Assembly: GCF_058153355.1 (NCBI RefSeq)
Contig: NZ_CM177019.1
Length of the DNA stretch: 64,000 bases
Direction: 5' to 3' (one strand)
Positions 1 to 42,881 of the stretch are shown here, in pieces; positions within the stretch are counted from its first letter, which is position 1, and every line of letters starts with the position of its first letter. A model generated the notes under the pieces. It searched no databases, was not told the origin of the DNA, and was given only the letters and a program-made list of their open reading frames with translations. A program made the position numbers and the translations under genes.

Positions 1-103
1 CCCCCCACTTCACAAATGCGGAAACAACGCCAGCAATTAGCCCAATGAATGCAGCAAGACCATAACGTCTGCGGTTCGGTGGAGTTTGTTCAAATATATT
101 CAT
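1..103 (-). CDS. yagU: Inner membrane protein YagU (DUF1440), N-terminal 34 codons only; rest of gene lies beyond window start
   Basis: Reverse complement of 1-103 translates [34 protein letters not shown], matching YagU N-terminus; divergent from paoA as in E. coli. Confidence 0.6.
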
Positions 104-508
104 ATTTACCCTGTTTGTTTCATTATGTTGTACACCTCTTCAGGAGTATTCATAAAACAAGATAAATGTAAAGAACTGTATTGTTTTGTATAATGCAATG
201 GTGACTAATCGCCAATTAATATAAGCACCATCATTTCTCCCTATTTTTATGTTAGAAGTGACAACGATTTGCAGGGTGATGCAGAGCTGACAATCACAGG
301 TTTCCTTATCGGTTTTTGCATCGCACAACTAAAGCAATAAACTAGCTCCCGTCATCGGCGAATATGAATTAATTAGCCGGGCTCATAGCTGCATTCGCGT
401 TTTAAGAATAATCCTCCTGCTCTCACCGACTATGCTTAACGTTTAAAAAAGCATCAACACTCTCGCAACGCACTCTTATTTTCCCCTTTAGAATACCGGA
501 GGCCTGGT

Positions 509-1198
509 ATGAGCAACCAAGGCGAATACCCCGAAGATAATCGGGTTGGGAAGCACGAGCCGCACGATTTTAGTTTGACCCGCCGCGATCTGATTAAAGT
601 GAGCGCCGCAACGGCGGCGACCGCCGTGGTTTATCCTCATTCTACGCTTGCGGCAAGCGTTCCGGCAGCTACACCCGCGCCAGAGATAATGCCCCTGACA
701 CTTAAGGTGAACGGCAAAACCGAGCAGCTTGAGGTGGATACCCGAACCACGCTACTGGACGCTTTGCGTGAAAATCTGCATCTGATCGGTACCAAGAAAG
801 GTTGCGATCACGGACAGTGCGGAGCCTGTACCGTGCTGGTCAATGGTCGCAGGCTTAATGCCTGCCTGACGCTGGCAGTCATGCATCAGGGGGCCGAGAT
901 CACCACCATTGAAGGCCTGGGTTCACCAGAGAATCTTCACCCCATGCAGGCGGCCTTTATCAAGCATGATGGCTTCCAGTGCGGCTACTGCACCTCCGGG
1001 CAAATTTGCTCATCAGTAGCGGTGCTAAAAGAGATTCAGGACGGCATTCCCAGTCACGTCACGGTCGATTTGGTTTCCCCTCCAGAAAGAACTGCCGATG
1101 AGATCCGTGAACGTATGAGCGGCAACATCTGTCGCTGTGGTGCATACGCTAACATCCTTGCCGCCATTGAAGACGCTGCGGGGGAGATAAAATCATGA
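509..1198 (+). CDS. paoA: Periplasmic aldehyde oxidoreductase, 2Fe-2S iron-sulfur subunit (Tat-exported)
   Basis: 229 aa; twin-arginine signal ([18 protein letters not shown]); Cys clusters [10 protein letters not shown] and CGYC/CRCG; GGAGG RBS before ATG. Confidence 0.9.
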
Positions 1199-2151
1199 AG
1201 GCGTTTACCTATGAACGTGTGAACACCCCTGCCGAGGCGGCACTTAGCGCTCAGCGCGTACCCGGCGCAAAATTTATCGCTGGCGGGACCAATCTGCTGG
1301 ACCTGATGAAGCTGGAAATTGAAACGCCAACCCACCTTATCGATGTGAACGGGCTCGGGCTCGATAAGATTGAAGTGACCGACGCGGGTGGGCTGCGCAT
1401 CGGCGCACTGGTACGGAACACCGACCTGGCGGCTCACGAGCGCGTGCGTCGTGATTACGCGGTACTCTCCCGCGCTCTGCTCGCTGGCGCGTCTGGTCAG
1501 TTACGTAATCAGGCAACCACCGCAGGTAATCTGCTCCAGCGCACGCGCTGCCCCTATTTTTACGACACCAATCAGCCCTGCAATAAGCGCCTGCCCGGGA
1601 GCGGCTGCGCGGCACTTGAAGGCTTTAGCCGTCAGCACGCGGTGGTAGGCGTAAGCGAAGCCTGCATTGCCACCCATCCGAGCGATATGGCGGTCGCAAT
1701 GCGGTTGCTGGATGCGGTGGTGGAAACCATCACGCCGGAGGGAAAAACTCGCAGTATCACACTGGCTGATTTTTATCACCCACCGGGGAAAACGCCGCAC
1801 ATTGAAACCGCCCTGCTTCCCGGTGAGCTTATCGTTGCGGTGACGTTACCTCCGCCGCTCGGCGGAAAACATATCTACCGCAAGGTGCGCGATCGCGCCT
1901 CCTACGCCTTTGCCCTGGTATCGGTCGCGGCGATTATTCAGCCTGACGGCAGCGGGCGCGTCGCGCTGGGCGGAGTAGCACATAAGCCCTGGCGCATTGA
2001 GGCTGCGGATGCTCAGCTATCCCAGGGGGCGCAGGCCGTGTATGACGCGCTGTTCGCCAGCGCCCATCCCACCGCTGAAAATACCTTTAAACTCCTGTTG
2101 GCGAAGCGAACGCTTGCCTCCGTACTGGCTGAAGCGAGGGCACAGGCATGA
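1195..2151 (+). CDS. paoB: Aldehyde oxidoreductase FAD-binding subunit
   Basis: 318 aa; FAD-binding molybdopterin dehydrogenase pattern ([13 protein letters not shown]); start overlaps paoA stop by 4 nt. Confidence 0.9.
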
Positions 2152-4346
2152 AATTTGATAAACCCGCAGGGGAAAACCCGATCGATCAGCTGAAGGTTGT
2201 CGGTCGTCCCCATGACCGCATCGACGGACCGCTGAAAACTACCGGCACGGCACGCTACGCCTACGAATGGCATGAAGAAGCCCCCAACGCCGCCTATGGC
2301 TATATCGTCGGTTCCGCCATTGCCAAAGGACGCCTCACCGCCCTTGATACGGACGCCGCGCAAAAAGCGCCGGGCGTACTGGCTGTCATTACCGCCAGTA
2401 ACGCTGGGGCACTCGGCAAAGGCGACAAAAACACCGCCAGGCTGTTAGGCGGCCCCACTATTGAGCACTATCATCAGGCCATTGCGCTGGTAGTGGCCGA
2501 GGCCTTCGAACAGGCGCGAGCGGCGGCCTCGCTGGTGCAGGCGCACTATCGCCGTAATAAAGGAGCTTACTCCCTGGCGGACGAGAAACAGGCCGTCAGT
2601 CAGCCGCCGGAAGACACGCCCGATAAAAACGTTGGTGACTTTGACGGGGCTTTCACCTCCGCTGCGGTGAAAATTGATGCTACATACACGACCCCGGACC
2701 AGAGCCATATGGCGATGGAGCCGCATGCCTCGATGGCCGTCTGGGATGGAAATAAGCTTACCCTCTGGACCTCAAATCAGATGATTGACTGGTGCCGCAC
2801 CGATCTGGCAAAAACGCTGAAAGTGCCCGTGGAGAATGTGCGTATTATCTCCCCGTATATCGGCGGAGGGTTTGGCGGCAAGCTATTCCTGAGAAGCGAT
2901 GCGCTGCTGGCGGCCCTCGCCGCCCGTGCGGTGAAACGTCCGGTTAAAGTGATGCTCCCCCGCCCCACTATTCCCAATAACACCACGCACCGCCCCGCCA
3001 CCCTTCAGCACCTGCGTATCGGTGCCGACCAGAGCGGGAAAATCACCGCTATCTCACATGAAAGCTGGTCCGGAAACCTGCCCGGCGGCACGCCGGAAAC
3101 GGCGGTACAGCAAAGCGAATTACTCTACGCAGGGGCAAACCGTCATACCGGCCTGCGGCTCGCCGCGCTTGATTTGCCGGAAGGGAACGCCATGCGTGCG
3201 CCCGGCGAAGCCCCCGGTCTGATGGCGCTCGAAATCGCGATCGACGAACTGGCGGAAAAAGCGGGCATCGATCCCGTCGAGTTTCGCATCCTGAATGACA
3301 CTCAGGTTGACCCCGCCGACCCGACGCGCCGCTTCTCTCGCCGTCAGCTTATCGAGTGCTTGCGCACCGGAGCGGATAAATTTGGCTGGAAGCAGCGCAA
3401 CGCCACACCCGGACAGGTGCGCGACGGGGAGTGGCTAGTCGGCCACGGTGTTGCGGCGGGCTTTCGCAATAATCTGCTGGAAAAATCGGGTGCTCGGGTT
3501 CACCTCGAACAAAATGGCACCGTTACCGTAGAAACGGACATGACCGACATTGGCACCGGCAGCTACACCATTCTGGCCCAGACGGCAGCGGAAATGCTTG
3601 GCGTACCGCTGGAGCAGGTTGCGGTTCACCTCGGCGATTCCAGTTTCCCGATTTCTGCGGGTTCTGGTGGACAATGGGGCGCGAATACCTCCACCTCCGG
3701 CGTTTACGCCGCCTGTGTGAAACTTCGCGAAATGATTGCCTCGGCGGTCGGGTTTGATCCTGAGCAGTCGCAGTTTGCCGACGGCAAGATTACCAACGGT
3801 ACCCGAAGCGCCACGCTACATGAGGCCACCGCAGGCGGCAGACTGACAGCGGAAGAGAGCATTGAGTTCGGCACTCTCAGCAAGGAGTACCAGCAATCGA
3901 CCTTTGCCGGGCATTTTGTGGAGGTCGGCGTGCATAGCGCGACGGGAGAAGTTCGGGTCCGGCGTATGCTCGCCGTGTGCGCAGCGGGGCGCATTCTGAA
4001 TCCGAAAACTGCACGCAGCCAGGTCATTGGCGCGATGACTATGGGCATGGGCGCGGCACTGATGGAGGAGCTGGCGGTAGATGACCGTTTGGGCTACTTC
4101 GTTAATCACGATATGGCGGGGTATGAGGTGCCGGTTCATGCGGATATCCCAAAACAGGAGGTGATTTTCCTGGATGATACCGACCCCATCTCCTCCCCGA
4201 TGAAGGCCAAAGGTGTCGGTGAGCTGGGCCTGTGCGGCGTGAGCGCGGCTATCGCCAACGCGGTGTATAACGCCACCGGTATTCGGGTACGGGATTATCC
4301 CATCACTCTGGATAAGCTGCTCGATAAACTGCCGGATGTGGTTTAA
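2148..4346 (+). CDS. paoC: Aldehyde oxidoreductase molybdopterin-binding large subunit
   Basis: 732 aa xanthine dehydrogenase/aldehyde oxidase family large subunit; translationally coupled to paoB. Confidence 0.9.
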
Positions 4347-4355
4347 GGAGGAACA

Positions 4356-5312
4356 ATGTCATACTCGCTTTTTGACAAAGACGAGCACTGGCATAAGCCA
4401 GAGCAGGCGTTTCTCACCGATGACCATCGGACCATTCTGCGCTTCGCCGTAGAGGCGCTAATGTCCGGTAAAGGAGCGGTGCTGGTGACGCTGGTGGAGA
4501 TACGCGGCGGCGCGGCGCGCCCGCTCGGAGCACAGATGGTGGTGCGCGAAGATGGTCGTTACTGCGGTTTTGTCTCTGGCGGCTGCGTGGAGGCCGCTGC
4601 CGCTTTTGAAGCGCTGGAGGTGATGGGCTCAGGCTGCGATCGCGAAATTCGCTATGGCGAAGGTTCGCCGTGGTTTGACATCGTTCTGCCCTGCGGCGGT
4701 GGGATCACGCTGACGCTCCATAAACTACGCTCGGCACAGCCTCTGCTCGCCGTGCTGAACCGCCTGGAACAGAGAAAACCGGCGGGTCTGCGCTACGATC
4801 CGCAAGCTCAATCGCTGGTGTGCCTGCCCACGCAAACCCGAACGGGCTGGAATCTCAATGGCTTTGAGGTGGGGTTCAGGCCATGCGTCAGGCTGATGAT
4901 TTACGGACGTTCTCTTGAGGCGCAGGCAACCGCGAGTCTTGCAGCAGCCACAGGCTATGACAGCCATATCTTCGATCTTTTTCCGGCCTCAGCCAGCGCT
5001 CAGATCGATACCGATACGGCGGTCATTTTGCTGTGCCATGATCTCAACCGGGAGCTGCCAGTGTTGCAGGCCGCGCGAGAGGCAAAACCCTTTTATCTCG
5101 GCGCATTGGGCAGCTATCGAACCCACACGTTACGTCTGCAAAAGCTCCACGAGCTAGGATGGTCCAGGGAGGAGACAGCGCAAATCCGGGCACCCATCGG
5201 GATATTCCCCAAAGCCCGGGATGCGCATACTCTGGCACTCTCTGTGCTGGCAGAAGTCGCTTCTGTACGTCTCCATCAGGAGGAGGATTCATGCCTGCCC
5301 CCGTCGTCGTGA
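4356..5312 (+). CDS. paoD: XdhC-like molybdenum cofactor insertion chaperone
   Basis: 318 aa XdhC/CoxI-like protein immediately after paoC; operon context. Confidence 0.85.
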   Translation: MSYSLFDKDEHWHKPEQAFLTDDHRTILRFAVEALMSGKGAVLVTLVEIRGGAARPLGAQMVVREDGRYCGFVSGGCVEAAAAFEALEVMGSGCDREIRYGEGSPWFDIVLPCGGGITLTLHKLRSAQPLLAVLNRLEQRKPAGLRYDPQAQSLVCLPTQTRTGWNLNGFEVGFRPCVRLMIYGRSLEAQATASLAAATGYDSHIFDLFPASASAQIDTDTAVILLCHDLNRELPVLQAAREAKPFYLGALGSYRTHTLRLQKLHELGWSREETAQIRAPIGIFPKARDAHTLALSVLAEVASVRLHQEEDSCLPPSS

Positions 5313-5371
5313 TCCTTGCGGCCGGGCGTGGAGAGCGCTTTCTCGCCTCCGGGGGAAATACCATAAATTAA
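5291..5371 (+). pseudogene. Truncated remnant of a MocA-like molybdenum-cofactor cytidylyltransferase gene (26 codons then stop)
   Basis: Strong RBS AGGAGGAGGA then ATG; peptide MPAPVVVILAAGRGERF matches the NTP-transferase P-loop-like N-terminus (ILAAGxGxR) but terminates after 26 aa. Confidence 0.35.
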
Positions 5372-5413
5372 GAGAAAAATCTGCAGTAGCCGTTTTAGAA
5401 AATCACCTAAATC

Positions 5414-5447
5414 GTTTAAAAGAGCGCCCAACCCATAGTGGGCGCTC
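5414..5447 (-). terminator. Rho-independent terminator downstream of the MFS transporter gene
   Basis: GC-rich inverted repeat GAGCGCCCA..TGGGCGCTC followed by T-run on the minus strand just 3-prime of the 5491 stop. Confidence 0.4.
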
Positions 5448-5490
5448 ATCGCCTTGTGTAACTTATTCAGCAACGCGCGCCCTCGCCGGA

Positions 5491-6684
5491 CTAAAGCGCA
5501 CCGGCCTTCTGGCGTGCGGTAACAAAGGTCAGTACGCCAGCGCAAAGGAGCAGCACGCTACTCATAGCAAACGTGCTCTGCCAGCCAAGGCGGTCAAACA
5601 CAATGCCTCCTGCCGTTGATCCAAGGGCGATGGCGAGCTGAATCACCGCGACCATGAGCCCGCCTCCGGCTTCGGCGTTGTCAGGCAACGTACGCGCAAT
5701 CCATGTCCACCATCCGGTTGGCGCAGCGGTGGCCAGCATGCCCCAGAGCCCTAACAGCAACGAAACCGTCCAGACCAGATGCCCGGTCAGCATCAGGCCG
5801 ATGGCAATGACGGCCATAAGTCCGGGTATGGCCATCAGCGTGGGGTAGAATTTTCTGTTGAGAAATGCCGAAACAACCAGCGTGCCAATAAAACCGGCCA
5901 CGCCGATAATCAGCAAAATCAACGACAAGCCTAAGGAATTAACCCGTGTCACCGACTCCAGAAACGGGCGCACATAGGTGAATAGCGCAAACTGCCCCAT
6001 GAAAAACAGGCCACAAGCTATCATGCCGACCACAACCATGCGGCGGCTAAATAAGCGGAATACCGTGCCAAATGACGTGTGGCTTTTATTCGCATCCATA
6101 CTGGGCAGGCTGATGCACTGCCAGATAAAGGCGACCACCGCGATGGGCACCAGGCACAAGAAAGCGCCTCGCCATCCGACCGTGGCACCCAGATAGCTTC
6201 CCAGCGGCGCGGCCACGACCGTCGCCAGCGCATTACCGGCATTGAAAATCGCCAGCGCACGCGTGACCTGTTGCTGCGGCACCAGACGAATCGCCGTTGC
6301 CGCAGACATCGACCAGAATCCGCCAATCGCCACACCAATCATCGCGCGACCGATCATATACATCAGATAACTGGAAGCCAGCGCAATAATAAGCCCCGAT
6401 ACGGCCATCAGAACCGTCATCCCCAGCAGCAGGAACTTACGATTCATCTTTCCAGCTAGCGTTGAAAGCGTCAGGCTGGTCAGAACCGCCAGCGCGCCGG
6501 AGATAGCAATCCCCTGCCCTGCCAGCCCCTCCGTCACGCCTAAATCGCGGGCAATCGGCGTGAGCAGGCTGACGGGCATAAATTCAGAAGCAATCAGCAC
6601 AAACACGCACAGGGTCATGGCAAAAATACCGCCCCAGTATGCGCGCTGATGATGAGGTGATGGTGTTTGGTTTAGCGTCGACAT
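5491..6684 (-). CDS. MFS transporter (12-TM efflux/permease type)
   Basis: 397 aa highly hydrophobic protein with MFS-like repeated TM organisation and GxxxG-rich helices. Confidence 0.85.
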   Translation of the reverse strand: MSTLNQTPSPHHQRAYWGGIFAMTLCVFVLIASEFMPVSLLTPIARDLGVTEGLAGQGIAISGALAVLTSLTLSTLAGKMNRKFLLLGMTVLMAVSGLIIALASSYLMYMIGRAMIGVAIGGFWSMSAATAIRLVPQQQVTRALAIFNAGNALATVVAAPLGSYLGATVGWRGAFLCLVPIAVVAFIWQCISLPSMDANKSHTSFGTVFRLFSRRMVVVGMIACGLFFMGQFALFTYVRPFLESVTRVNSLGLSLILLIIGVAGFIGTLVVSAFLNRKFYPTLMAIPGLMAVIAIGLMLTGHLVWTVSLLLGLWGMLATAAPTGWWTWIARTLPDNAEAGGGLMVAVIQLAIALGSTAGGIVFDRLGWQSTFAMSSVLLLCAGVLTFVTARQKAGAL

Positions 6685-6759: not shown

Positions 6760-7896
6760 TTATTTCAGTTTGGTCTGGAAAAATTGTTCGAACTTCGCGA
6801 AAGGTATTTTTCCGGCAACGTTATCGTACAGATCCACGTGATTTGCCCCAGGAACCACTACCAGCTCTTTGTCTTTACTGCCGACCGCCTTATAAGCATC
6901 TTCAGCAAAATAGCGTGAATGCGCTTTCTCACCGGTCACGATAAGCGTCGGAATGGTGATTTCACTGGCGTAGCTGAGCAGCGGCATATTCATAAACGAC
7001 AGCGGCATCGTTGCCGTCCACGCCCCGGTCGAGTTCACGGATCGTGCATGAAAACCACGCGGCATACGATAGTAATCGAAGAACTCTTTCAGTACCGGAT
7101 GCGGATTTGCCGGCAGCGTTTCTGGCAGAATACGCTCGCCCGCACTGACCTTGCCGTTGCTGTCGACATTAATATCATGACCACCGTGAGCGAACGTTCC
7201 GCTCTGCGCATCCTTCCAGCGCTGTTCATTCAGATATTGCAGAACAGCACGACGGTCGGCGGTAGAATAACGGTCTTTGCCATCCCCCACACCATGGCCC
7301 ATCGCCCGGCTCATGTCATACATCACGCTGGTAGCTACCGCTTTAACGCGGGTATCCATCGCCGCGTCGTTCAGCGCCATGCCGCCCCAGCCACAAATAC
7401 CGAGCAGCCCGATACGGTTGCGATCTACCTCTTTTTGCAGCCCTAAGAAATCCACCGCCGCGCTGAAATCTTCAGTGTTGATATCCGGTGAGGCGACGTT
7501 TCGCGGATAGCCGCCGCTTTCCCCGGTGTAAGAAGGATCGAACGCCAGGGTAACAAACCCTCGTTCCGCCAGCGTCTGCGCATACAAGCCGCTGGATTGC
7601 TCTTTCACCGCGCCAAATGGCCCACTGACCGCAATCGCCGCCAGCTTGCGATCGCCACGGTCTTTAGGCAGGTAAAGATCGCCCACTAAGGTGATGCCAT
7701 ATCGGTTCGGGAACGAGACTTTACGGTGATCGACTTTCTGGCTCTCGGCGAACGTTTTATCCCATTTATCTGTCATGGACACAGGGGCATTAGGATTGGT
7801 TGAATCAGCATAACTCATTGTCGTGACTCCACTTAATGATGCGAAAAGCAGCATGGTCGGCATCGCGATTTTTAGCGTTCGGGTGAAGGCTTTCAT
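6760..7896 (-). CDS. Secreted dienelactone-hydrolase-family alpha/beta hydrolase (Cys nucleophile)
   Basis: Start moved to internal ATG (MKAFTRTLKIAMPTMLLFASLSG signal peptide); GICGWGG nucleophile elbow with Cys; paralogous to 11908-13772. Confidence 0.75.
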   Translation of the reverse strand: MKAFTRTLKIAMPTMLLFASLSGVTTMSYADSTNPNAPVSMTDKWDKTFAESQKVDHRKVSFPNRYGITLVGDLYLPKDRGDRKLAAIAVSGPFGAVKEQSSGLYAQTLAERGFVTLAFDPSYTGESGGYPRNVASPDINTEDFSAAVDFLGLQKEVDRNRIGLLGICGWGGMALNDAAMDTRVKAVATSVMYDMSRAMGHGVGDGKDRYSTADRRAVLQYLNEQRWKDAQSGTFAHGGHDINVDSNGKVSAGERILPETLPANPHPVLKEFFDYYRMPRGFHARSVNSTGAWTATMPLSFMNMPLLSYASEITIPTLIVTGEKAHSRYFAEDAYKAVGSKDKELVVVPGANHVDLYDNVAGKIPFAKFEQFFQTKLK

Positions 7897-8082: not shown

Positions 8083-8967
8083 ATGGCGAAAAGGGAGAAC
8101 TACAACGAGCTGTACCTGTTTATGCAGGTGGTGCGGGAAGGCAGCTTTACCGCAGCGGCTCAGCGGCTGGGTCTTGCTCAGTCAGGAGTCAGCCGTTCTG
8201 TTCGCGAGCTTGAAGAAAGGCTCGGCGTCCAGCTGCTAGTGCGCACCACGCGTAAACTGTCGCTGACGCAAGCAGGCGAGCAGCTCTACCAGAAGACGGC
8301 ATCTGGATTTGAAATGTTAGATCTTGGGCTTGCCACACTGGCGCACTATCGAGAGACGCCCTCCGGCACGGTGCGTATCAATGCCAGCCAGCACGCGATT
8401 GATAAATGCCTGCTGCCAAAGCTGGCGGTATTTAAACAGCGATATCCTGATATCCGGCTTGAACTGATAAATGAGAGCCGGTTCGTCGATATCATCGAGG
8501 AAAGATTCGATGCTGGTGTCCGCCTGGGGCCTGAAGTCGGTCAGGGTATGGTCGCGGTACGCATCACGCCCGATATGGAGATGGCAATTGTGGGGACTCC
8601 GGAACATTTTCGTCGCTATGGTTTTCCGCAAACCCCGGCGGATTTAAAGGCGCATCCCTGTATCGCCTATCAGTTTGCCGACGGCAGCGTATACCAGTGG
8701 GAACTCAATCAGGATGATAAAAAAATCACTCATCGCCCTGAAGGGCAATGGGCCCTATCCGACAGCTATATGGAAGCAGAAGCCGCACGGCTGGGCCTCG
8801 GATTGGCCTATGTTCCTGTTGAACTGGTTGCGGATGATTTAGAACACGGTAAGCTTATCAGAGTGTTGCAGCGTTACAGCCTGCGAATGGAGGGATTGTT
8901 TCTCTATTACCCTCATCGCAACGTCTCCCCCGCTCTGCGGATGGTCATTGATACATTGAAAATCTGA
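8083..8967 (+). CDS. LysR-family transcriptional regulator
   Basis: 294 aa; N-terminal LysR HTH (FMQVVREGSFTAAAQRLGLAQSGVSRSVRELEERLGVQLL) plus substrate-binding domain. Confidence 0.85.
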   Translation: MAKRENYNELYLFMQVVREGSFTAAAQRLGLAQSGVSRSVRELEERLGVQLLVRTTRKLSLTQAGEQLYQKTASGFEMLDLGLATLAHYRETPSGTVRINASQHAIDKCLLPKLAVFKQRYPDIRLELINESRFVDIIEERFDAGVRLGPEVGQGMVAVRITPDMEMAIVGTPEHFRRYGFPQTPADLKAHPCIAYQFADGSVYQWELNQDDKKITHRPEGQWALSDSYMEAEAARLGLGLAYVPVELVADDLEHGKLIRVLQRYSLRMEGLFLYYPHRNVSPALRMVIDTLKI

Positions 8968-9177
8968 ACGTTAACAACGACCGACTCTTCACTGTGCAAT
9001 ATTGTGTCAGGTAGTCATTCTGCGTTCAATTCCAGGGGCCGCTTTGAGCGAAGAGCGGACCTTCTCGCCCTGTACGTATAGAAAGCTACAAATTGATGTT
9101 TCATCTTCCAGATAGTTACAGGCAAAACGGTATATTCCAGAATTACCTGTACTCAAGTCTGATTACTTAGGTCTTAT

Positions 9178-10305
9178 TTATGTCGGAAACCATCCGGGCG
9201 TCTTCTGAATCACTTGCCATAGTTTTTCAGGGATCGCCAATTCGTCTGAGTGTTGCGACAGGATAAGCGTGTTTTTTACCTTATCCTCATGGCCTGCCTG
9301 CACCAGCTCCATCCAGTTGGGATTCATGACAATCGTCCGGCCTATGGCAACCAGTGACAGTCCGGCCTCCAGAGACTGTTGAGCCGCTTGTGATGAAGTA
9401 ATTTTTCCCGCTGCCAGCAGAGGTAAACGCCCATTCAGCTGCTCTACAAACCGTGCCAGAATCGTATCCTTACCCTCACTACTCTGCGGCCGGTCGGTCA
9501 GTACGTCGTGGAGTGAGATATGGAGATAGTCAATGAGAGACTCTTTCTCTAACTGACCAGCCAGGGCCTGGGAGTCATTAATCCGTAATCCTCCGTCTCC
9601 TGACTCTTCCGGCGATAACCGGTAACCCAATAAAAAGGGTTTTCTGGCATGAGCTTCAATAACCCGCCGGACTTCCCGAACGACCTCCAGCGGGAAACGC
9701 ATACGGTTTGCTAATGAACCCCCCCATTCGTCAGTACGCAGGTTAAACCAGGGGGAGAAGAAGTTCTGGATAAGAAAACCATGCGCACCGTGCAATTCAA
9801 CACCATCAAAACCGGCCTCAATTGCGCGGCGAGTGGCTTCGCCGAAGTCATGGATCACACCAGAAATTTCGTCATGGTCCAAAGCCCGGCAGGCTTGTTC
9901 GCCACGATTAAAAGGGCCAGCCGGAGCGGCCAGGGCACTGGCGCTGACGATCTCCCCACCAGGGATGAGTTCGGGAACCGCTTTATTACCGGCATGAAAC
10001 AGTTGCAGAATTGCCAGCGCCCCCCCGCTTTTTGCTACATCAGCCAGTTTCCTCAGACTCGGGATAAAACGATCATCGTAGGCTGCGAATTCATTGGTGA
10101 AACCCACACCGTTTCTCTGAACATGAGCGCATCCCGTTATCACTAATCCCACACCGGTAGCGCGCGCCCGATAATAGTTTACTTCTTCATCTGAAATAGT
10201 TTCATCGTCATTAGCGGACCAGGTGGTCATCGGTGCCATAACGACGCGGTTACGCATCCTGAGACCATTTTTAAACGTGAAGGCCTGGGTTAATAAGTCA
10301 GTCAT
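9178..10305 (-). CDS. NADH:flavin oxidoreductase, Old Yellow Enzyme family
   Basis: 375 aa; OYE-like FMN-binding TIM barrel pattern (VMAPMTTW, LQLFHAG, GFDGVELHGAHGFL). Confidence 0.85.
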   Translation of the reverse strand: MTDLLTQAFTFKNGLRMRNRVVMAPMTTWSANDDETISDEEVNYYRARATGVGLVITGCAHVQRNGVGFTNEFAAYDDRFIPSLRKLADVAKSGGALAILQLFHAGNKAVPELIPGGEIVSASALAAPAGPFNRGEQACRALDHDEISGVIHDFGEATRRAIEAGFDGVELHGAHGFLIQNFFSPWFNLRTDEWGGSLANRMRFPLEVVREVRRVIEAHARKPFLLGYRLSPEESGDGGLRINDSQALAGQLEKESLIDYLHISLHDVLTDRPQSSEGKDTILARFVEQLNGRLPLLAAGKITSSQAAQQSLEAGLSLVAIGRTIVMNPNWMELVQAGHEDKVKNTLILSQHSDELAIPEKLWQVIQKTPGWFPT

Positions 10306-10344
10306 TGTACTCTCGATATTTAAAGCATCGGGTGCTTACACCCA

Positions 10345-11178
10345 TTAATCAAAATCGGTGGTATTACTCAGCGCAGCAAATTCGCGTATCTCTTTAATAC
10401 GGGCTTCCAGTGAAGGCATTACAAAACTGATAGCGTCATTTCCTATTAGGAGCTGTCGAGGTGGGTTCTTCATTTCAACCACCTGACAAACTACCAGTGC
10501 AAGTTTGGCAGGGTCCCCTTGCTGTTGACCATCTGCGGATGCCAGCAGCTCACGCACATCGCCATAATCGGCATAGTCCTCAATCTTTTTTTCGCCATAG
10601 TGTGCCGAACTATTACTGAGAAACTCTGTGCGGAAAAAACCGGGCTCAATCGCGGTGACATAAATACCAAGCGGGGCAACTTCATCGGCAAGTGCAAGCG
10701 TCATACCTTCAACGGCAAATTTCGATGCAGAATAGAATGTAGCGTTTGCGACCGCTTTAACACCCGCGATCGAGGACGTATTAATAATGCGTCCGCTACG
10801 CTGCTGGCGCATGACCGGTAAGACTGCGCGCAGCACATTGGCCATGCCGAACACGTTAGTGGCAAACTGCAGTTCTATTTGTTCAGCGGTTGCCTCTTCA
10901 AAACGCCCCAGCAGGCAGAATCCTGCGTTGTTAACCAGAACATCAATACGTCCGAAACGGCGAATAGCGGCATCCACGGCAACCCTGGCCTGCTGTTCAT
11001 CACGGACATCAAGCTCCAGCAGCTCAATATTTTCTTCAGAGGCCGTGCTGAATGTCCTGCGTAAGTTGTCCATATTACGCCCCGTTGCTACAACACGATC
11101 GCCCTGTTGCAAAGCGGCATTCACTATATCGGTCCCCATGCCGCGGGCAGCCCCGGTTACAAACCAAATACGACTCAT
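10345..11178 (-). CDS. Short-chain dehydrogenase/reductase (SDR)
   Basis: 277 aa; TGAARGMG cofactor-binding motif, NNAG, YSASK catalytic motif. Confidence 0.85.
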   Translation of the reverse strand: MSRIWFVTGAARGMGTDIVNAALQQGDRVVATGRNMDNLRRTFSTASEENIELLELDVRDEQQARVAVDAAIRRFGRIDVLVNNAGFCLLGRFEEATAEQIELQFATNVFGMANVLRAVLPVMRQQRSGRIINTSSIAGVKAVANATFYSASKFAVEGMTLALADEVAPLGIYVTAIEPGFFRTEFLSNSSAHYGEKKIEDYADYGDVRELLASADGQQQGDPAKLALVVCQVVEMKNPPRQLLIGNDAISFVMPSLEARIKEIREFAALSNTTDFD

Positions 11179-11250
11179 CTCAGTTCCCCCTGATAAGTTT
11201 ACTAACCCGTACTGCGATAAGGTCTGTACGGGTTTAATGGCATTTTTGAT

Positions 11251-11901
11251 TTACATAAAGTACGGCTTGTCGCCGTCGGTACCGGGCTGATTAACACCGA
11301 TATTTTCACCAATATGTTTTTCAGGTTTATCAATCATATCGGCGATTAATGCGGCGACGCTTTTGCGGGATACAACCGTGCCTTTGAACGGCTCATTGCG
11401 GGTAGTGAGTTCATAATCAATCGTATCTTCATCGGTCAGCCAGGCCGGACGCAGGATGGTGTAATCCAGCCCGGAGGCTTCAATCGCATCAGCCGCGCGG
11501 CGGAATGGCCTGAGCGGTTCGCCAATAATGGCGTTATTCCACTCGCCGAATTTTCCCGGGACTTCATCATAAATACCGAGCGAAAGGACGAAAATCAGAC
11601 GTCTTACGCCAGCGGCTTTCATCGCTGCAATCACCGCCTTCGCCTGAAGATCTAAATCCTCCCCGGTCAGATTGGCGTAAACCACATCCTGACCCACCAT
11701 GGCCTGTTCCAGTGCCGCATGGTTTAGCACATCGCCCATGATAATCCGGCTATTGGCCGGATGTGGTTTGTGTATTTTGACCGGCTGACGGGCAAATAAT
11801 GTCTGTGTGACGCCAGGTTTATCCGCCAGTTGATCGATAACATGGCGGGCAATCTGCCCGCTGGCACCAAGCACCAGGACTTTTTGAATGATGTTTTTCA
11901 C
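11251..11901 (-). CDS. NAD(P)H-binding (NmrA/atypical SDR-like) oxidoreductase
   Basis: 216 aa; N-terminal VLVLGASGQIARHV Rossmann motif. Confidence 0.7.
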   Translation of the reverse strand: MKNIIQKVLVLGASGQIARHVIDQLADKPGVTQTLFARQPVKIHKPHPANSRIIMGDVLNHAALEQAMVGQDVVYANLTGEDLDLQAKAVIAAMKAAGVRRLIFVLSLGIYDEVPGKFGEWNNAIIGEPLRPFRRAADAIEASGLDYTILRPAWLTDEDTIDYELTTRNEPFKGTVVSRKSVAALIADMIDKPEKHIGENIGVNQPGTDGDKPYFM

Positions 11902-11907
11902 AGGGCA

Positions 11908-12840
11908 TTACTCCAGGTGTGCGGCAAAGAACGGAAGCACTTTTGACATCGCTTCACGAACCGCTTCTGGATTGTCATACAGTTCGTAATGCGAATAATC
12001 GGCTAATGAGACCAGCTGACGGTCACGGGAAACTGCAGCCCGTCCATAGATTTCCAGACCATCACGGTAAGCTCCGAAAGCGCCCACTTTTTCGCCGACC
12101 ACCACCATCACCGGCTGAGTCAGCAATACTTCGGCAAAAGCAAAGGCATCCCAGGCCAGCGTTTTCTGCGCATGAGAGAACACCATTCGCGTTGCCCCGC
12201 CTGGCTGCTGGCCACGTGGCGTTTTGTAGTAGTCTGTTGCCTCAAATACGTCACGCTCAGTCAGTCCACTGGCCTTTGCCATTTCCGGGCTGGCGGGGAA
12301 CAGTTCATTAACCTGAACCTCTCCCCCGCGGGCTTCATTCGTACGCTGCGCCGCCATCGCACTCAGTGCACCAATAGGGTCGTAATTGCTGAAACCTTCG
12401 CGGAAAAGCCGGCCGATATTTACGCCGGTGATACTCACCACGGCTTTAATACGTTTCTCCGTCAGTGTGGCATTAATGGCATAACCACCGCCGCCGCAAA
12501 TACCCAGAACGCCAATCCGTTCAGCATCGACATACGGCAGAGTTACGGCGTAATCAATAACGCGACTGATATCTTCCACGCGCTGAGTCGGATCCTCCAC
12601 CCAGCGCGGGGAGCCGCCGGATTCCCCCTGGAAACTGGCGTCATAGGCGATCACAACATAGCCTGCTTCAGCCAGCGCTTTTCCGTAGACATTGCCGGAT
12701 GTCTGTTCCTTACAGCTGCCAAAAGGGTGGACGCTGATAATTGTCGGATACTGTTTTGTTTCATCAAACGCCGGTGGAAACTGAACGCTGGCAGCAATGT
12801 GCCAGGCCATATCGGCATTCTGAATTTGAACATGTTTCAT
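11908..12840 (-). CDS. Dienelactone hydrolase family protein (cytoplasmic paralog 1)
   Basis: 310 aa; GICGGGG Cys nucleophile elbow; start ATG overlaps stop of upstream paralog. Confidence 0.8.
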   Translation of the reverse strand: MKHVQIQNADMAWHIAASVQFPPAFDETKQYPTIISVHPFGSCKEQTSGNVYGKALAEAGYVVIAYDASFQGESGGSPRWVEDPTQRVEDISRVIDYAVTLPYVDAERIGVLGICGGGGYAINATLTEKRIKAVVSITGVNIGRLFREGFSNYDPIGALSAMAAQRTNEARGGEVQVNELFPASPEMAKASGLTERDVFEATDYYKTPRGQQPGGATRMVFSHAQKTLAWDAFAFAEVLLTQPVMVVVGEKVGAFGAYRDGLEIYGRAAVSRDRQLVSLADYSHYELYDNPEAVREAMSKVLPFFAAHLE

Positions 12841-13772
12841 TACAGTGTCTCCTCGAAGAATGGGGCTAATACGGAAACTGCTTCCGCGACGTATGCTTTA
12901 CCGTCATACAAGTCCATATGGTTGGCACCTTCAACAATGTGGTACCGCTTATCCTGGCTTGAGGCGCGATCGTACAGATCGTCGCTCATCCATTTACTTC
13001 CCGCCGCGCTACCCGCAACAATTTGCAGCGGCTGGGTCAGGTAAACCTCCGCCATTTGGTAAGCGTCATAGGTAATGATCTGATTGAGGCTTCGCAGCGT
13101 GGCGTATCCGGGGGCCGTCGGATACTGTGCCCGTGGCGTGTGGTAATACTCCCAGGCCTGACGCAACTCTTCATTTGGAGCATCAGACTCCTTCATGGGA
13201 GCCAGCGGCATGGTGGCATATTCACTGCCGCTGATATCGGTACTACGGGCATTTGAACCGGCTACAACATACGGCAGTGCATCAATGGATTTCACATTGT
13301 TTTCCCAGCCATTACGGAACATCGAGCCGATATTAACGGCACTGACCGTTCCGATGGCCTTGATGCGACGATCCTGAATCGCGGCATTGGCGGTATAGCC
13401 TGCACCGGCGCAAATTCCCATCGCGCCAATTTTCGCGCTGTCGACATAAGGCAGTGTGGTCAGGTAATCAATCACCGCACTGACATCTTCGGTACGGATG
13501 TACGGGTTTTCCAGCTGGCGCGGCTCTCCGCCACTTTCGCCCTGATAAGACGCATCATAAGCCACTGTCACAAACCCTTTTTCTGCCAGCTTTTCGGCAT
13601 AGGTTCCGGCAGTTTGTTCCTTAACGCCACCTCCCGGATGAGAGACCACAATAGCCGGGTACTTGAGGCTTTCATCAAATGCGGGTGGGAAGTAAAGCAC
13701 GGCGGACAAAGAGATTGTCGGGATATTGCTGTTGGTGAAACTGATTTTCTGGTTCATCATCCGGTTCCTCAT
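12840..13772 (-). CDS. Dienelactone hydrolase family protein (cytoplasmic paralog 2)
   Basis: 310 aa; GICAGAG Cys nucleophile elbow; tandem with 11908-12840. Confidence 0.8.
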   Translation of the reverse strand: MRNRMMNQKISFTNSNIPTISLSAVLYFPPAFDESLKYPAIVVSHPGGGVKEQTAGTYAEKLAEKGFVTVAYDASYQGESGGEPRQLENPYIRTEDVSAVIDYLTTLPYVDSAKIGAMGICAGAGYTANAAIQDRRIKAIGTVSAVNIGSMFRNGWENNVKSIDALPYVVAGSNARSTDISGSEYATMPLAPMKESDAPNEELRQAWEYYHTPRAQYPTAPGYATLRSLNQIITYDAYQMAEVYLTQPLQIVAGSAAGSKWMSDDLYDRASSQDKRYHIVEGANHMDLYDGKAYVAEAVSVLAPFFEETL

Positions 13773-13898
13773 TGGGCTGTCGGTTATCTGTCACGCTTGA
13801 TGGGATAACTATAGCCATTGATTATTAAGATGATTAGACCCAAAATAATGATTGGACTTATCATTTAAATGATTAATACATCGGGTGGGGACGCAGAA

Positions 13899-14798
13899 AT
13901 GAAACGCGATGAGATAGCAGATCTGATGGCATTCGTGGCCGTCGCTGAAGAGCGTAGTTTCACCCGGGCTGCCGCCCGTCTTGGTATGGCGCAGTCAGCG
14001 TTAAGCCAGATAGTGCGCCGTACAGAAGAGCGCCTGAATCTGCGGCTTCTGACGCGTACTACACGCAGCGTTGTTCCCACAGAAGCGGGTGAACACCTCT
14101 TGTCTGTTCTTGGCCCAATGCTGCATGACCTGGATTCCGCGCTGACTTCCCTGGGCGATCTTCGCGATCGCCCGTCCGGCACCATACGCATTACCACAGT
14201 GGAACATGCCGCAAAGACCATATTGCTTCCCGCCATGCGTACGCTGTTGAAATCCCATCCTGAAATTGATGTGCAGATCTTCATCGATTATGGCCTTACT
14301 GATGTCGTCTCAGAGCGCTTTGATGCCAGGGTTCGCCTGGGGGGAGAAATGGATAAGGATATGATTGCTGTTCGAATCGGGCCCGATATCCCGATGGCAA
14401 TTGTGGGTGCGCCGGAGTATCTCTCGCGAAGAGGTACCCCTGTGTCTGTGGCGCACCTGGTCGATCATCAGGCTATTAACCTGTACCTTCCTTCATCGGG
14501 CACCGCAAATCGCTGGAGATTAGTGCGCGGAGGGCGCGAAGTCAGGGTTCGCATGGAAGGACAACTTCTATTAAATACGATAGACCTGATCCTCGATGCC
14601 GCTATTGACGGGCACGGCCTCGCGTATCTGCCTTATGATCAGGTTCAGCAGGCTATTGTAGAAAAAAAACTGATCCGCGTTCTGGAGAAATTTACGCCAG
14701 ACTTACCAGGATATCACCTGTACTACCCACACCGCCGCCATGCGGGTTCGGCATTCTCTCTGTTAATTGATGTGCTGAAGTATAAAGGGGATGTTTAA
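13899..14798 (+). CDS. LysR-family transcriptional regulator
   Basis: Start moved to ATG at 13899 (MKRDEIADLMAFVAV..) with GGGG RBS; LysR HTH and effector domain; divergent from hydrolase operon. Confidence 0.85.
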   Translation: MKRDEIADLMAFVAVAEERSFTRAAARLGMAQSALSQIVRRTEERLNLRLLTRTTRSVVPTEAGEHLLSVLGPMLHDLDSALTSLGDLRDRPSGTIRITTVEHAAKTILLPAMRTLLKSHPEIDVQIFIDYGLTDVVSERFDARVRLGGEMDKDMIAVRIGPDIPMAIVGAPEYLSRRGTPVSVAHLVDHQAINLYLPSSGTANRWRLVRGGREVRVRMEGQLLLNTIDLILDAAIDGHGLAYLPYDQVQQAIVEKKLIRVLEKFTPDLPGYHLYYPHRRHAGSAFSLLIDVLKYKGDV

Positions 14799-14951
14799 CT
14801 ATTCTTTTTGATGGTGATTCCAGTCGTTCAGAGAGTACTAATACACCTTTGTGCAACGTCCGCTCCTGGCACAAAGCTGACCATCACCCTCCCTCCAAAT
14901 TAATGAACACATCTAATAAACCCTAGCTAATTACCCTATCTAATTGAATAA

Positions 14952-16867
<1,916 letters not shown>

Positions 16868-16891
16868 TACCCGGACGGGTCTACGGACCCG

Positions 16892-17824
<933 letters not shown>

Positions 17825-17933
17825 TCATGAAGGGTGTTCATAGACACAATCATTTTAGCCCCATTACTGACAATAATGATAATTGATATTCTGGTTGTAT
17901 CGAAAATAAGTCTGAATTATCAGAAGGTTTATC

Positions 17934-18707
17934 ATGAAAATACTCGTTGCAGGGGCGACAGGAAGCATTGGCCTTCATGTCGTGAATACCGCAATTAAAA
18001 TGGGCCATCAGCCCGTCGCGCTGGTCAGAAATAAACGCAAAGTAAAATTGCTTCCTCGTGAAACAGATGTTTTTTACGGCGATATTTCAATGCCGGAAAC
18101 ACTCACCGAATTACCGAAAGATATTGATGCCATCATCTTCACGCTCGGTTCTGATGTCCAGGGGCGTATTGGTGCCAGAGCGATCGATTACGGAGGAGTA
18201 CGTAATATTTTGCGAATATTCAAGGATACACCTGTCCATATCGCCCTGATGACCACGATTGGCGTGACTGAACGACTCAGCACCTGGAATCAACGTACTG
18301 AGGTTCATGACTGGAAAAGACGTGCCGAGCGTCTGGTCAGGGCAAGTGGTCATCCCTATACCATCGTCAGGCCCGGCTGGTTTGATTACAACAATGATAA
18401 TGAGCACAGAATCGTTATGCTTCAGGGAGACAGGCGTCATGCAGGAACACCGGAAGATGGTGTGATATCCCGGGGTCAAATCGCCCAGGTTCTGGTCAAT
18501 GCCCTGACCAACGATGAGGCAAAAAATAAAACGTTCGAGCTAGTGGCTGAGCGAGGCGAAGCACAGCAGGATCTTACCCCACTGTTTGCAGACCTGAAGA
18601 CTGATGATCCACAGAAAAATGATGGGGTTTTGGACATCGACAATATGTCTCTGCGTGAAGAACCTGAGTGCATTATCAAAGAGCTGAACCTGTATTCAAA
18701 AAATTAA
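17934..18707 (+). CDS. NAD(P)H-binding oxidoreductase (NmrA-like)
   Basis: 257 aa; MKILVAGATGSIGLHVV Rossmann motif. Confidence 0.75.
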   Translation: MKILVAGATGSIGLHVVNTAIKMGHQPVALVRNKRKVKLLPRETDVFYGDISMPETLTELPKDIDAIIFTLGSDVQGRIGARAIDYGGVRNILRIFKDTPVHIALMTTIGVTERLSTWNQRTEVHDWKRRAERLVRASGHPYTIVRPGWFDYNNDNEHRIVMLQGDRRHAGTPEDGVISRGQIAQVLVNALTNDEAKNKTFELVAERGEAQQDLTPLFADLKTDDPQKNDGVLDIDNMSLREEPECIIKELNLYSKN

Positions 18708-18848
18708 ACAATCTACAACCCTGACAATTTTGTCATATAGCAGTCAGCCTCATGACAGCTTAAGTCTGTATATTTGAATGTACAGAGGGGGATAGTTCCC
18801 CTGATACGAGCCCAGTTTCAAACACAAATTTTAAAAAAGGTATTAGAT

Positions 18849-19100
18849 ATGAAATCACTACTTATTACTTCATTGGTCATGGGATTTATTACAGTGAATA
18901 CCGCATCTGCCGCTCAGGAAATTAACCATGCAGATGGGAAAGAAAAGATCGGTGTAATATCAGCCAGCAATGCCTATACGCTTGATGATTTATCGAATGC
19001 GCTCTCTCGTAAGGCTGATGAGCAAGGAGCAACGTCGTTCAAAATTCTGTCAACCACGGGGAATAACCGGTTACACGGGGTTGCTGAAATATATAAGTAA
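18849..19100 (+). CDS. DUF1471 (YdgH/BhsA/McbA-family) small periplasmic stress protein
   Basis: Start moved to MKSLLITSLVMGFITVNTASA signal peptide; C-terminal GATSFKILSTTGNNRLHGVAEIYK matches the BhsA-type domain. Confidence 0.6.
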   Translation: MKSLLITSLVMGFITVNTASAAQEINHADGKEKIGVISASNAYTLDDLSNALSRKADEQGATSFKILSTTGNNRLHGVAEIYK

Positions 19101-19156
19101 ATCATTAGCATCCTGAGCAGGATGTGTCTCAGCCCTCTTATAGCGAGCGTCGTTCT

Positions 19157-19498
19157 ATGTTTAGAACAGAAGACATCATCGACGAGATAACTCAATGGAT
19201 TGATTCAAACTTACATAAACCGATGAAGATAGAGGATGTTGCTGCGCGGGCAGGATACTCCAAGTGGCATCTTCAGCGGATTTTTGTACAGGTAAAAGAA
19301 GTTAGTCTTGGGAAGTACATAAGAGATACGAAACTTAGACTAGCAGCAAAAGATCTTATCGAGACTAATGAGCCAGTGATGGTTATCGCCTTTAAATATG
19401 GATTCGATTCACAACAAACTTTTACTCGGGTTTTCTCTAAAAAATATAAATTGCCACCATTGAAATATAGAAACGCGGAAAAGAGAAAAAAACATTAA
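19157..19498 (+). CDS. AraC-family regulator of the MarA/SoxS/RamA type
   Basis: Start moved to ATG 19157; ~113 aa two-HTH protein (AARAGYSKWHLQRIF ... FKYGFDSQQTFTRVF). Confidence 0.7.
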   Translation: MFRTEDIIDEITQWIDSNLHKPMKIEDVAARAGYSKWHLQRIFVQVKEVSLGKYIRDTKLRLAAKDLIETNEPVMVIAFKYGFDSQQTFTRVFSKKYKLPPLKYRNAEKRKKH

Positions 19499-19878
19499 CA
19501 GTTCAAAGTTATCACCCTTACGTAACATAACCAGAATAATAATATATTCCAGCATCAAAAGTTGACGTTTTTTTGGTCTGGAAGCTTCTTGTTCGGAACA
19601 AAGCTCTGCCTGGTTTTTAACATACAATGTCTAGACCATGACCTTCAGCCATTACACATCAGCCAAAATATCGAACAGAACCAGATCGATATCCAATCAT
19701 TTCCCCCTCGTGGCAAGCCATTAACTTTTAGATATGTTATTTACTCTTGCAGTCGATTCATGGCACTCAGCAGACAAGCTACCTGAGATGAAGATCAGCT
19801 GCGAGTAAGGAGAAGACATAGACAGGAGGATGCTGATAATATTTCCCCATTGGATTACCGTTTCCAACAGGGGTATGA

Positions 19879-20436
19879 ATGGAATACCAAACTTCATTGC
19901 AGAAAATATTGTCAGATGACCCTGTGAGAATGAAGATTCTCTATGCAGTCCAAGCACTGGAACTCAATGATAGCTGGATTGGGGCGGGATTCGTACGGAA
20001 CGCTGTTTGGGATCACTTTCATGAATATGGGCTAAGCCCTGTTTCTGGTGATGTCGATGTTGTCTGGTTTGACTGCGAATACTGTAACCCAGACCATGAT
20101 CGTTACCTTGAAGACACGCTTAGGCAACAACTACCTTCGTTTGACTGGTCGGTGAAGAATCAAGCCAGAATGCATCAACGTAATGGTGATTCTCCCTATA
20201 CGTCAACGACAAATGCTTTACTGCACTGGCCTGAAACAGCTACGGCTGTAGCTGTCAGATTGGGTAAGAACGGTCTCGATATCACTGCGCCTTATGGACT
20301 TTCTGACTTATTTGAACTGCGTTTACGACCAACTCCTGCATTTGAACGTGAAAAGTTGGGTACTTTTAAACAACGGGTCACTACGAAGCAATGGTTGGAA
20401 CGTTATCCCAGGTTACAACTCACCGTTTCCTTATAA
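19879..20436 (+). CDS. Nucleotidyltransferase-family protein (DUF925-like)
   Basis: 185 aa; GAGFVRNAVWD ... GDVDVVWFD pattern typical of minimal Pol-beta-fold nucleotidyltransferases; assignment from memory. Confidence 0.5.
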   Translation: MEYQTSLQKILSDDPVRMKILYAVQALELNDSWIGAGFVRNAVWDHFHEYGLSPVSGDVDVVWFDCEYCNPDHDRYLEDTLRQQLPSFDWSVKNQARMHQRNGDSPYTSTTNALLHWPETATAVAVRLGKNGLDITAPYGLSDLFELRLRPTPAFEREKLGTFKQRVTTKQWLERYPRLQLTVSL

Positions 20437-20629
20437 TCTAGATATACAAATATCCCGGTTCTTGCGGTTCGATTGTCTGATTGACCGTTCGCACCAGACA
20501 TGAAGTGTACGGACTGACTGGCTGAGCAGTAGGTTTGCTATGAGCGTGGAGCAGACGTTAGTCTGAATACTCGATGATATACTTCACCACAGAAATATCC
20601 ATTTTATAAGAACCGATACTTTAATTACT

Positions 20630-20989
20630 TCATAAATCAGCACATTCTAGATTTCCAAGTTTCTGAATTACAGAATCTGGATTCGCACAGGCATACTCCA
20701 TGACACTTAACCAAACGATTTTTTGTTTCGGGAATCCGTTGTGGTAAAACTGATACCTCAGGCCGGGGGCACAGATGAGAAGAGCAGGATCTCGTGCCAT
20801 CAACATCTCAATGTCCGATTCAGTATCGTCAGCAAGAACACTCCAATCTAGCTGTAAACTATTCAGCTCACTTTGAAGAGCCTGAATGTATTTCTCAGTT
20901 AGAGAATATGGGAAATAGCCTCTAAGCAATGGCGAACGGCCTAGTGTAGGGCTGGGGCTATGGATAAAGTAAACGACCTTATTTGTCAT
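20630..20989 (-). CDS. Hypothetical protein, possible degenerate PTS EIIB (lactose/cellobiose type)-like fold
   Basis: 119 aa with perfect AAGGAG RBS; weak resemblance to ChbB-type EIIB but lacks the active-site Cys. Confidence 0.3.
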   Translation of the reverse strand: MTNKVVYFIHSPSPTLGRSPLLRGYFPYSLTEKYIQALQSELNSLQLDWSVLADDTESDIEMLMARDPALLICAPGLRYQFYHNGFPKQKIVWLSVMEYACANPDSVIQKLGNLECADL

Positions 20990-21292
20990 TGTTCTCCTTG
21001 TTTATGTTTATACAGCTATTAGTTGGTAACGAACTAACGGTTTGCCTCTACTTTCAGTGCTTTGGCGAACAATATTATATCTCATGTAAAAAGTATAACT
21101 TTTAGCCAATTGATATGCCAACGTCCACTCCTGGCACTAAGCAGGCTGTCAGACGAAAGTGTAACGTTTCAAAAGTAAGCGTAAATGCAAATCAGTACAA
21201 AAAAAATTACTGTGGTTGAACTCCTCCAGAACGGAGGAGCTAAGCTTTAGATTTCACGCTACCTACTGATAAGAACCAATTTAAGGTTCGTA

Positions 21293-22488: not shown

Positions 22489-22650
22489 TGGGGCATCTCC
22501 CTGGACCGAACATAGAATCCCCCCACTAATGCCCCCAACTGCAACTTGATTTCGGTTGAGTCCAGTTGATAACAGGAGACAAGATACGAGCCAGAAACCA
22601 CAGTGTACGGGCTTTTAGTTGATTTCGGTAGACTTGGGAAGAGTTTGAAA

Positions 22651-41372: not shown

Positions 41373-42881
<1,509 letters not shown>

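Follow-up and report, generated by a model that had tools for sequence, protein, structure and literature searches.

The window, a stretch of 64,000 nucleotides of Escherichia coli DNA (contig NZ_CM177019.1), carries the paoABCD operon on its plus strand at 509-5312, with the domains expected of PaoA, PaoB, PaoC and an XdhC-type chaperone, PaoD. The operon is annotated likewise by PGAP in near-identical strains. Its last intact gene, paoD (4356-5312, +), encodes an XdhC-family molybdenum-cofactor insertion chaperone, as judged from the ORF list, the Pfam domains XdhC_CoxI and XdhC_C and the PGAP annotation of the near-identical strains. Within the paoD coding sequence lies a Shine-Dalgarno run, AGGAGGAGGA, at 5278-5287 (+), and 3 nt past this run (7 nt past the first AGGAGG core) an ATG at 5291 opens a short second reading frame. 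This frame (5291-5371, +), hereafter the stub, overlaps the end of paoD by 22 nt, that is, with its first seven codons, and encodes 26 residues, MPAPVVVILAAGRGERFLASGGNTIN, before a TAA stop at 5369-5371. An earlier note on this DNA had described the Shine-Dalgarno sequence, the ATG overlapping the end of paoD, the peptide and the stop after 26 codons, and each of these agrees to the base with the window sequence and the ORF list.

No feature is annotated by PGAP at the stub in strains with the window-type arrangement. A consensus promoter and terminator scan of 5000-5800 called nothing, and the only Rfam match is a noise-level hit to Esr41 (18.9 bits against 102). Downstream, the first intact gene is a convergent MFS transporter gene (5491-6684, -; Pfam MFS_1). 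Its longest ORF has 397 codons and the PGAP model in near-identical strains 375 codons (1,128 nt), so that its true start is uncertain.

The 26-residue peptide matches no Pfam family, PF12804 (the MobA-like NTP transferase family, NTP_transf_3) included, and retains only about 24 of the ~160 positions of that domain. Its sequence nevertheless follows the nucleotide-binding loop pattern of a hydrophobic strand and then AAG/AGG-x-G-x-R-F/M, and its loop, VVVILAAGRGERF, aligns column for column with the loops of intact homologues and of E. coli MocA. In the family alignment, loop residues A10, G12 and G21 are invariant, and E15, R16 and F17 nearly so. Comparison of the sequences thus indicates that the stub descends from a member of PF12804 while not being a member itself.

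The clearest picture of what the stub once belonged to is offered by the pao loci of other species. A scan for PaoD with one genome per bacterial species returned 80 loci, none of them from Escherichia, and 35 of these, mostly from Enterobacteriaceae, were examined. Of the 35, 25 have an ORF of 180-199 codons whose start lies at -21 to 0 nt relative to the paoD stop, and these 25 take in most of the enterobacterial loci. The first 24-27 codons of these intact genes match the stub, and their N-termini are nearly identical to it (e.g. MSSPVVLILAAGRGERFLASGGKSHKLDALL...). In the closest locus, L003, whose PaoD is 90% identical, the sequence upstream of the start (...CAGGAGGAGG.TTCATG) and the overlap with paoD are the same as in the window. 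There, the gene at 6936-7490 is one of the 184-aa 'nucleotidyltransferase family proteins' that follow paoD in Enterobacter oligotrophicus, a 'Pluralibacter' MAG, Leclercia, Silvania, Siccibacter, Cronobacter and others (P0004 is a further example). The closest full-length relatives in a collection of 5.8 billion proteins (P0001-P0008, among them the protein of Enterobacter oligotrophicus) begin with MPAPVVLILAAGRGERFL(T/S)SGG.THKLAA. No Escherichia occurs among the named entries of these relatives, which is weak evidence, named entries being a minority. The earlier note had taken the stub for the truncated start of an accessory pao gene, and had held that a short ORF conserved in related genomes, with no longer homologue at the position, would speak against this. 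The loci of other species display the opposite, a longer homologue at the same position, with AGGAGG upstream of it in the closest relative.

The same note had likened the peptide to the start of a MocA, a likeness that holds at the level of the superfamily only. The intact syntenic homologues score 91-92 bits against PF12804 (gathering threshold 27; E 9e-26 to ~1e-25). Among the NCBIfam models, MocA/YgfJ and the DVU_1551-family NTP transferase fit them best, with ~84 bits each. Against the MocA model TIGR03310, they reach 83-85 bits (84.7 for the full-length protein) and stay below its equivalog cutoff of 186.45. Identity between an intact protein and E. coli MocA is 19%, with a pairwise E of 0.03. 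These values point to a distinct pao-linked clade of distant MocA paralogues rather than to MocA itself. Activity of the intact homologues as CTP:molybdopterin cytidylyltransferases is suggested by their gene context after paoD and by their superfamily; the stub cannot have this activity.

Searching the entire 64-kb window by tblastn with 12 full-length syntenic homologues gave a sole significant match, at 5291-5362, corresponding to residues 1-24. For 10 of the 12 queries, E there lies between 4e-8 and 4e-6 at 75-87% identity, and the two most distant queries give 3e-4 and 6e-4. All other matches in the window have E of 0.01 or more; among them, weak matches at 24347-24475 (E 0.01-0.5) run antisense in the presumed proB, as judged by the position of thrW, and were discarded as noise. 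Because 5291-5362 is the only significant match in 64 kb, the resemblance of the stub to the intact gene is not a product of chance.

The truncation extends far beyond the window. Of 5,426 complete E. coli genomes, 3,605 have paoC and 3,598 the paoD end together with the stub region. The other 1,821 genomes, about one third, have no paoC match at all, which makes pao an accessory locus of the species. When the intact L003 gene served as query in a sensitive blastn search, none of the 5,426 genomes covered 80% or more of it, and the best matches span nt 1-81 (codons 1-27). Since no genome exceeds these 81 nt, the truncation is common to essentially all pao-bearing E. coli.

The point at which the ancestral gene breaks off can be read from both sides. 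On the left, window 324-5370 aligns continuously with L003 1956-7016 at 91.5% DNA identity, through paoD and into the stub, and the alignment ends at 5370. With the DNA aligning unbroken at this identity, separate origins of the stub and of the 184-aa neighbour of paoD in relatives are very unlikely. On the right, window 5370-5469 is 99% identical to L103 9877-9976 from E. coli FDAARGOS_1373, a strain with an intact alpha/beta-hydrolase gene (L103 8832-9896) that ends in ...TTTTTGAAAGAGAAAAATCTGCAGTAG. The junction thus lies at 5370-5371, where the MobA/MocA-like gene, broken off at codon 27 (TTA), runs into the seven final codons of the hydrolase gene; A5370 is common to both parents, a microhomology of 1 nt, and the TAA stop of the stub straddles the junction. 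The hydrolase relic occupies 5370-5389 (+) and reads K-E-K-N-L-Q-stop, with TAG at 5387-5389, the body of the gene having gone in the same deletion. What was once the downstream region of the hydrolase gene (5390-5490; 99% identical to L103 9897-9976) now separates the pao operon from the convergent MFS gene. A GC-rich hairpin of 9 bp at 5422-5447, inherited with this region, may now end the pao transcript, although a strict terminator scan was negative.

A tract that holds both sides of the junction in their undeleted order is found in L088/L089, a contig labelled Salmonella enterica. It is a segment 85-92% identical to the window beside relaxase and integrase genes, and thus no direct E. coli ancestor. 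There, a 5'-truncated paoD and an intact 184-aa gene precede a 7.1-kb block, beyond which come an MFS, a hydrolase and a LysR gene; in the window, this trio comes after the stub. Genes for a hydrolase, a response regulator, a histidine kinase, cupin, CMD and flavodoxin proteins and the alpha/beta-hydrolase make up the block. Collinearity with the window holds on both sides of it: window 4513-5370 matches L088 4819-5674 at 92%, and window 5503-8783 matches L088 12881-16148 at 85%, placing the deleted stretch at about 5675-12775 of L088 (~7.1 kb). At the junction itself L088 is too diverged, and the match of the right side to its hydrolase end is not significant alone (80 of 500 shuffles reached the score). 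The right side is settled by the E. coli strain with the intact, 99% identical hydrolase 3' end. As the sequence to the right of the junction lies 7.1 kb downstream in L088 in the same orientation, the junction arose by deletion through illegitimate recombination and not by insertion.

The 7.1-kb block also has a life of its own. In 77 E. coli genomes it stands elsewhere in the chromosome as an independent module, at some sites with extra inserted genes or partly decayed; examples are L103 752-15200 in FDAARGOS_1373 and L104 5989-9890 in strain 95-3322. In L088 (1-16148) and L089, tyrosine-recombinase-like, UvrD-like helicase and TraI relaxase genes directly adjoin the tract of truncated paoD, intact transferase gene and block, as if this tract had been captured by an integrative conjugative element.

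These data also bear on whether the gene might still be complete in the window, either frameshifted or interrupted by an inserted island on whose far side its 3' part would lie. A genuine 1-nt frameshift exists at 5362/5363, three codons before the breakpoint, and a thrW-linked variable region does lie to the right. The continuation in another frame that the earlier note had thought worth seeking therefore exists for these three codons and goes no further: in any frame, the 12 homologues have no match past residue 24 anywhere in the window, whose 64 kb take in thrW, proA and proB. Neither the window nor any of the 5,426 complete genomes holds a 3' half, and the same-orientation order in L088 is the signature of a deletion. 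We regard a frameshifted or split gene as hardly credible. The suggestion that the site marks the edge of a rearrangement fared better, with homology to the intact gene ending at 5370 and genomes of the K-12 type diverging from the window at 5366/5367.

If the 26-codon frame were a conserved gene for a small functional protein, translated from its strong ribosome-binding site, its length and stop codon would be expected to be stable. The start signal is indeed retained: a strong Shine-Dalgarno sequence and the ATG are kept in all 12 E. coli sequences inspected, with the variants AGGATGAGGA, ATGAGGAGGA and an AGGAGGA that is 3 nt shorter, and the first 24 codons are fairly similar throughout. 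From this shared ATG, the ORF runs for 26, 35, 49, 109, 132 or 136 codons depending on the strain, and no conserved length or stop codon of the kind seen in a small-protein gene was found among the 12. The 26-codon form goes back to the loss of one nucleotide in the ACCC run (5360-5362), whereby codons 1-24 (5291-5362) remain in the ancestral frame and ancestral codons 25-27, (C)AT AAA TTA (5363-5370), are read as ATA AAT TAA. This C-loss allele (...T I N stop) is shared by the window, EC42405 and O157:H7. Strains 7/2 and WR14-2 carry the undeleted junction, ACC CAT AAA TTA/AGA GAA..., and read 35 codons, one extra A leads to 49 codons in JNE12-007, and AF40 has a 109-codon readthrough antisense to the MFS gene.

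By short junction-spanning queries, the 912 genomes with the window-type arrangement include about 406 with the C-loss allele and at least 340 with the exact undeleted allele; about 2,700 pao-bearing genomes have the K-12-type arrangement. Thus, the length of 26 codons given by the earlier note is real in the window, yet specific to an allele of ~406 of 5,426 E. coli genomes, or of the ~3,600 that bear pao, while the truncation itself is far wider. As an observation apart, the IS3-family element ISEc52 (L084 4214-5565) interrupts paoD of E. coli MARGA_4 ~100 nt short of its end, at a site close ahead of the stub.

The pattern of substitutions offers a further view on constraint. Over codons 1-24, seven distinct E. 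coli alleles differ by seven amino-acid changes (P4S, V5I, L7V, E15K, R16C, A19T and G21E) and four synonymous ones. The corresponding pN/pS is 0.56, compared with 0.15 for the same codons of five intact genes, with only 11 substitution events behind these values. E15K, R16C and G21E strike positions at which the intact family varies little or not at all. Such substitutions fit decay, which with numbers this small is only suggestive. The seemingly relaxed pN/pS and the changes at the most conserved ancestral residues speak against a functional peptide, and similarity over codons 1-24 is expected from recent common descent, the first seven codons overlapping paoD besides. Together with the variable length, this renders a conserved small-protein gene highly improbable.

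The largest group of alleles, the K-12 type, has a distinct history. In K-12, the junction ACC CAT AAG/TGT ATC GGC... leads the frame onward as the annotated pseudogene yagP, and YagP, of 136 codons, consists of the stub followed by a LysR_substrate fragment. The intact parent of the LysR part stands beside thrW in O157:H7 and EC42405, where codons 186-192 read ...GTG AAT CAT AAG TGT ATC GGC; the intact O157 LysR gene, which has ...AATCATAAGTGTATCGGC, explains the K-12 junction ACCCATAAGTGTATCGGC. An origin of the fragment from the DNA downstream of the intact transferase gene in other genera was also considered and rejected, as it is absent there. These comparisons indicate that yagP arose through a second deletion, in which ~6 kb between a pair of CATAA(G) motifs was lost and the stub came to be fused in frame to LysR codon 188. 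MARGA_4 displays the K-12 arrangement without the CP4-6 prophage, in the order paoD, stub::'lysR, thrW, proA.

The resulting gene (b0282 in K-12, annotated as a LysR-family pseudogene fragment) shares with the window stub the Shine-Dalgarno sequence, the ATG and the first 24-26 codons. It differs by continuing in frame into LysR residues 188-299, whereas the window ORF stops at the older junction after 26 codons. The PGAP annotation of yagP covers the LysR part only, and we found nothing in the literature that notes the stub or the chimeric nature of yagP. From their shared sequence, the window ORF and the start of yagP are alleles of one remnant. On their left sides, the two deletions begin within 3-4 nt of each other: the window type breaks after CATAAATTA, the K-12 type after CATAA. 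We consider this a mild coincidence, expected by chance in a few percent of cases, as the CATAA microhomology accounts for the K-12 end only; alternatively, the GC-rich gene may break easily at this AT-rich patch.

The in-frame fusion raises the question of whether the retained start has been put to new use, either by protecting the 3' end of the pao mRNA or blocking Rho, or by driving a functional chimeric YagP of 136 aa under pao control in the ~2,700 genomes of the K-12 type. In favour of this, the start region has been retained, four of the five strains of the K-12 type (type A) that were sampled have an intact in-frame fusion, and yagP is listed in one transcriptome study among the genes up-regulated under carbon limitation (PMC6390033). 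However, the Shine-Dalgarno sequence lies inside the paoD coding sequence, so that its retention needs no function of its own, and an in-frame fusion is expected by chance in one case out of three. The LysR part of yagP, moreover, has a pN/pS of 0.62 within K-12-type genomes and one premature stop, while two intact LysR copies differ by seven synonymous and no non-synonymous changes. Reuse of the start in either form is thus improbable.

In the window, a 13.6-kb segment (9061-22643) lies between a LysR gene (8083-8967) and thrW (22651-22726, -). EC42405, otherwise 98.6-99.9% identical, has in place of this segment 2.9 kb with ykgR', a hypothetical gene, an SDR gene and a second LysR gene. The latter is the intact parent of yagP and is absent altogether from the window. 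Further along, inverted repeats at 41648-42981 and 48943-50276, each of 1,334 nt and 99% complementary, flank 5,961 nt, an arrangement that resembles two IS copies bracketing a composite element.

Identity to Enterobacter oligotrophicus varies along the window as well. In a comparison that took in loci L085 and L087, the pao operon (324-5370) is ~90% identical in DNA to that of Enterobacter oligotrophicus. Part of the 13.6-kb segment (14854-17579, with two aldo-keto reductase genes) likewise shares ~90% identity with sequence that lies downstream of pao in both Enterobacter oligotrophicus and L003. The core thrW-proA region (22302-24055) is only 81% identical to that of Enterobacter oligotrophicus. 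The higher identity of pao relative to this core suggests that the pao region moved horizontally between the lineages of E. coli and Enterobacter oligotrophicus.

Taken together, the ORF at 5291-5371 is very probably a non-functional 5' remnant of a fifth gene of the pao operon that was lost by deletion, given that the start of a gene matches at the same position in relatives, that the rest is absent and that the junction can be identified. The ancestral fifth gene would have encoded a MobA/MocA-like nucleotidyltransferase of ~184 aa, translationally coupled to paoD through an ATG 22 nt inside that gene and behind AGGAGG; the Shine-Dalgarno run at 5278-5287 is its original ribosome-binding site, as AGGAGG also precedes the intact L003 gene. 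In an ancestor of today's pao-bearing E. coli, illegitimate recombination at a microhomology of 1 nt deleted ~7.1 kb and joined codon 27 to the seven final codons of the hydrolase gene, taking away the rest of the transferase gene, a hydrolase, a two-component system, the cupin, CMD and flavodoxin proteins and the alpha/beta-hydrolase. The frame drifted later: the loss of one C in the window lineage and O157:H7 gave 26 codons, and other lineages came to 35, 49 or 109. In the K-12 type, the second deletion of ~6 kb between CATAA(G) motifs fused the stub to the LysR gene beside thrW and gave rise to the 136-codon yagP. The Shine-Dalgarno sequence and ATG have presumably survived through their position within or next to the coding sequence of paoD, and this start signal probably still loads ribosomes and yields a short peptide without function.

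PaoD is reported to receive its MCD cofactor from MocA (PMC3909100), and the loss of the gene may have been tolerated since unlinked MocA supplies the cytosine dinucleotide cofactor to PaoD. The same study describes paoD as the last gene of paoABCD (PMC3909100). On our reading, the operon once had five genes, and its own MobA/MocA-like transferase was lost before the pao-bearing lineages of E. coli diverged; E. coli PaoD would have to take the cytosine-dinucleotide cofactor from unlinked MocA because the pao-linked transferase is gone. The uncharacterised pao-linked clade of transferases in other Enterobacteriaceae, 19% identical to MocA, then becomes a candidate for a dedicated partner of PaoD. 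For yagP, the implication is that it is no simply truncated regulator: a pao-derived ribosome-binding site and 26 codons have been fused to a LysR fragment, a chimeric origin that matters wherever yagP is studied as a transcription factor. The thrW-linked variable region, moreover, now has a left border known to the single base. The stub in itself is an ordinary gene remnant, of modest annotation value.

Among known systems, the 184-aa neighbour of paoD in other genera is a close counterpart of the stub. The two are alike in position, overlap with paoD and ribosome-binding site and share the 75-87% identity over the first 24 residues; P0004 matches the K-12 allele of the stub at 23 of 26 residues. 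Unlike the stub, the neighbour is intact and has the whole PF12804 domain, with a predicted activity only. MocA (YgfJ), the CTP:molybdopterin cytidylyltransferase, has in common with the lost gene the NTP_transf_3 superfamily, the N-terminal hhhhAAGxxxR(F/M) loop and the link to PaoD and MCD, and is set apart by the low identity and by the 84.7 bits reached where 186 are required of its equivalogs. Its gene, mocA, is unlinked to pao and adjoins yqeB/yqeC, near xdhD. Gene pairs of an xdhC-like chaperone and a MocA homologue have been described as pucA-pucB in B. subtilis, as xdhC-mocA on pAO1 of Arthrobacter nicotinovorans and as a pair in O. carboxidovorans (PMC2997495). The pao locus resembles these pairs in that a cofactor-insertion chaperone is followed by, or co-transcribed with, a cytidylyltransferase homologue, and differs from them in that the second gene is reduced in E. 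coli to its first 27 codons.
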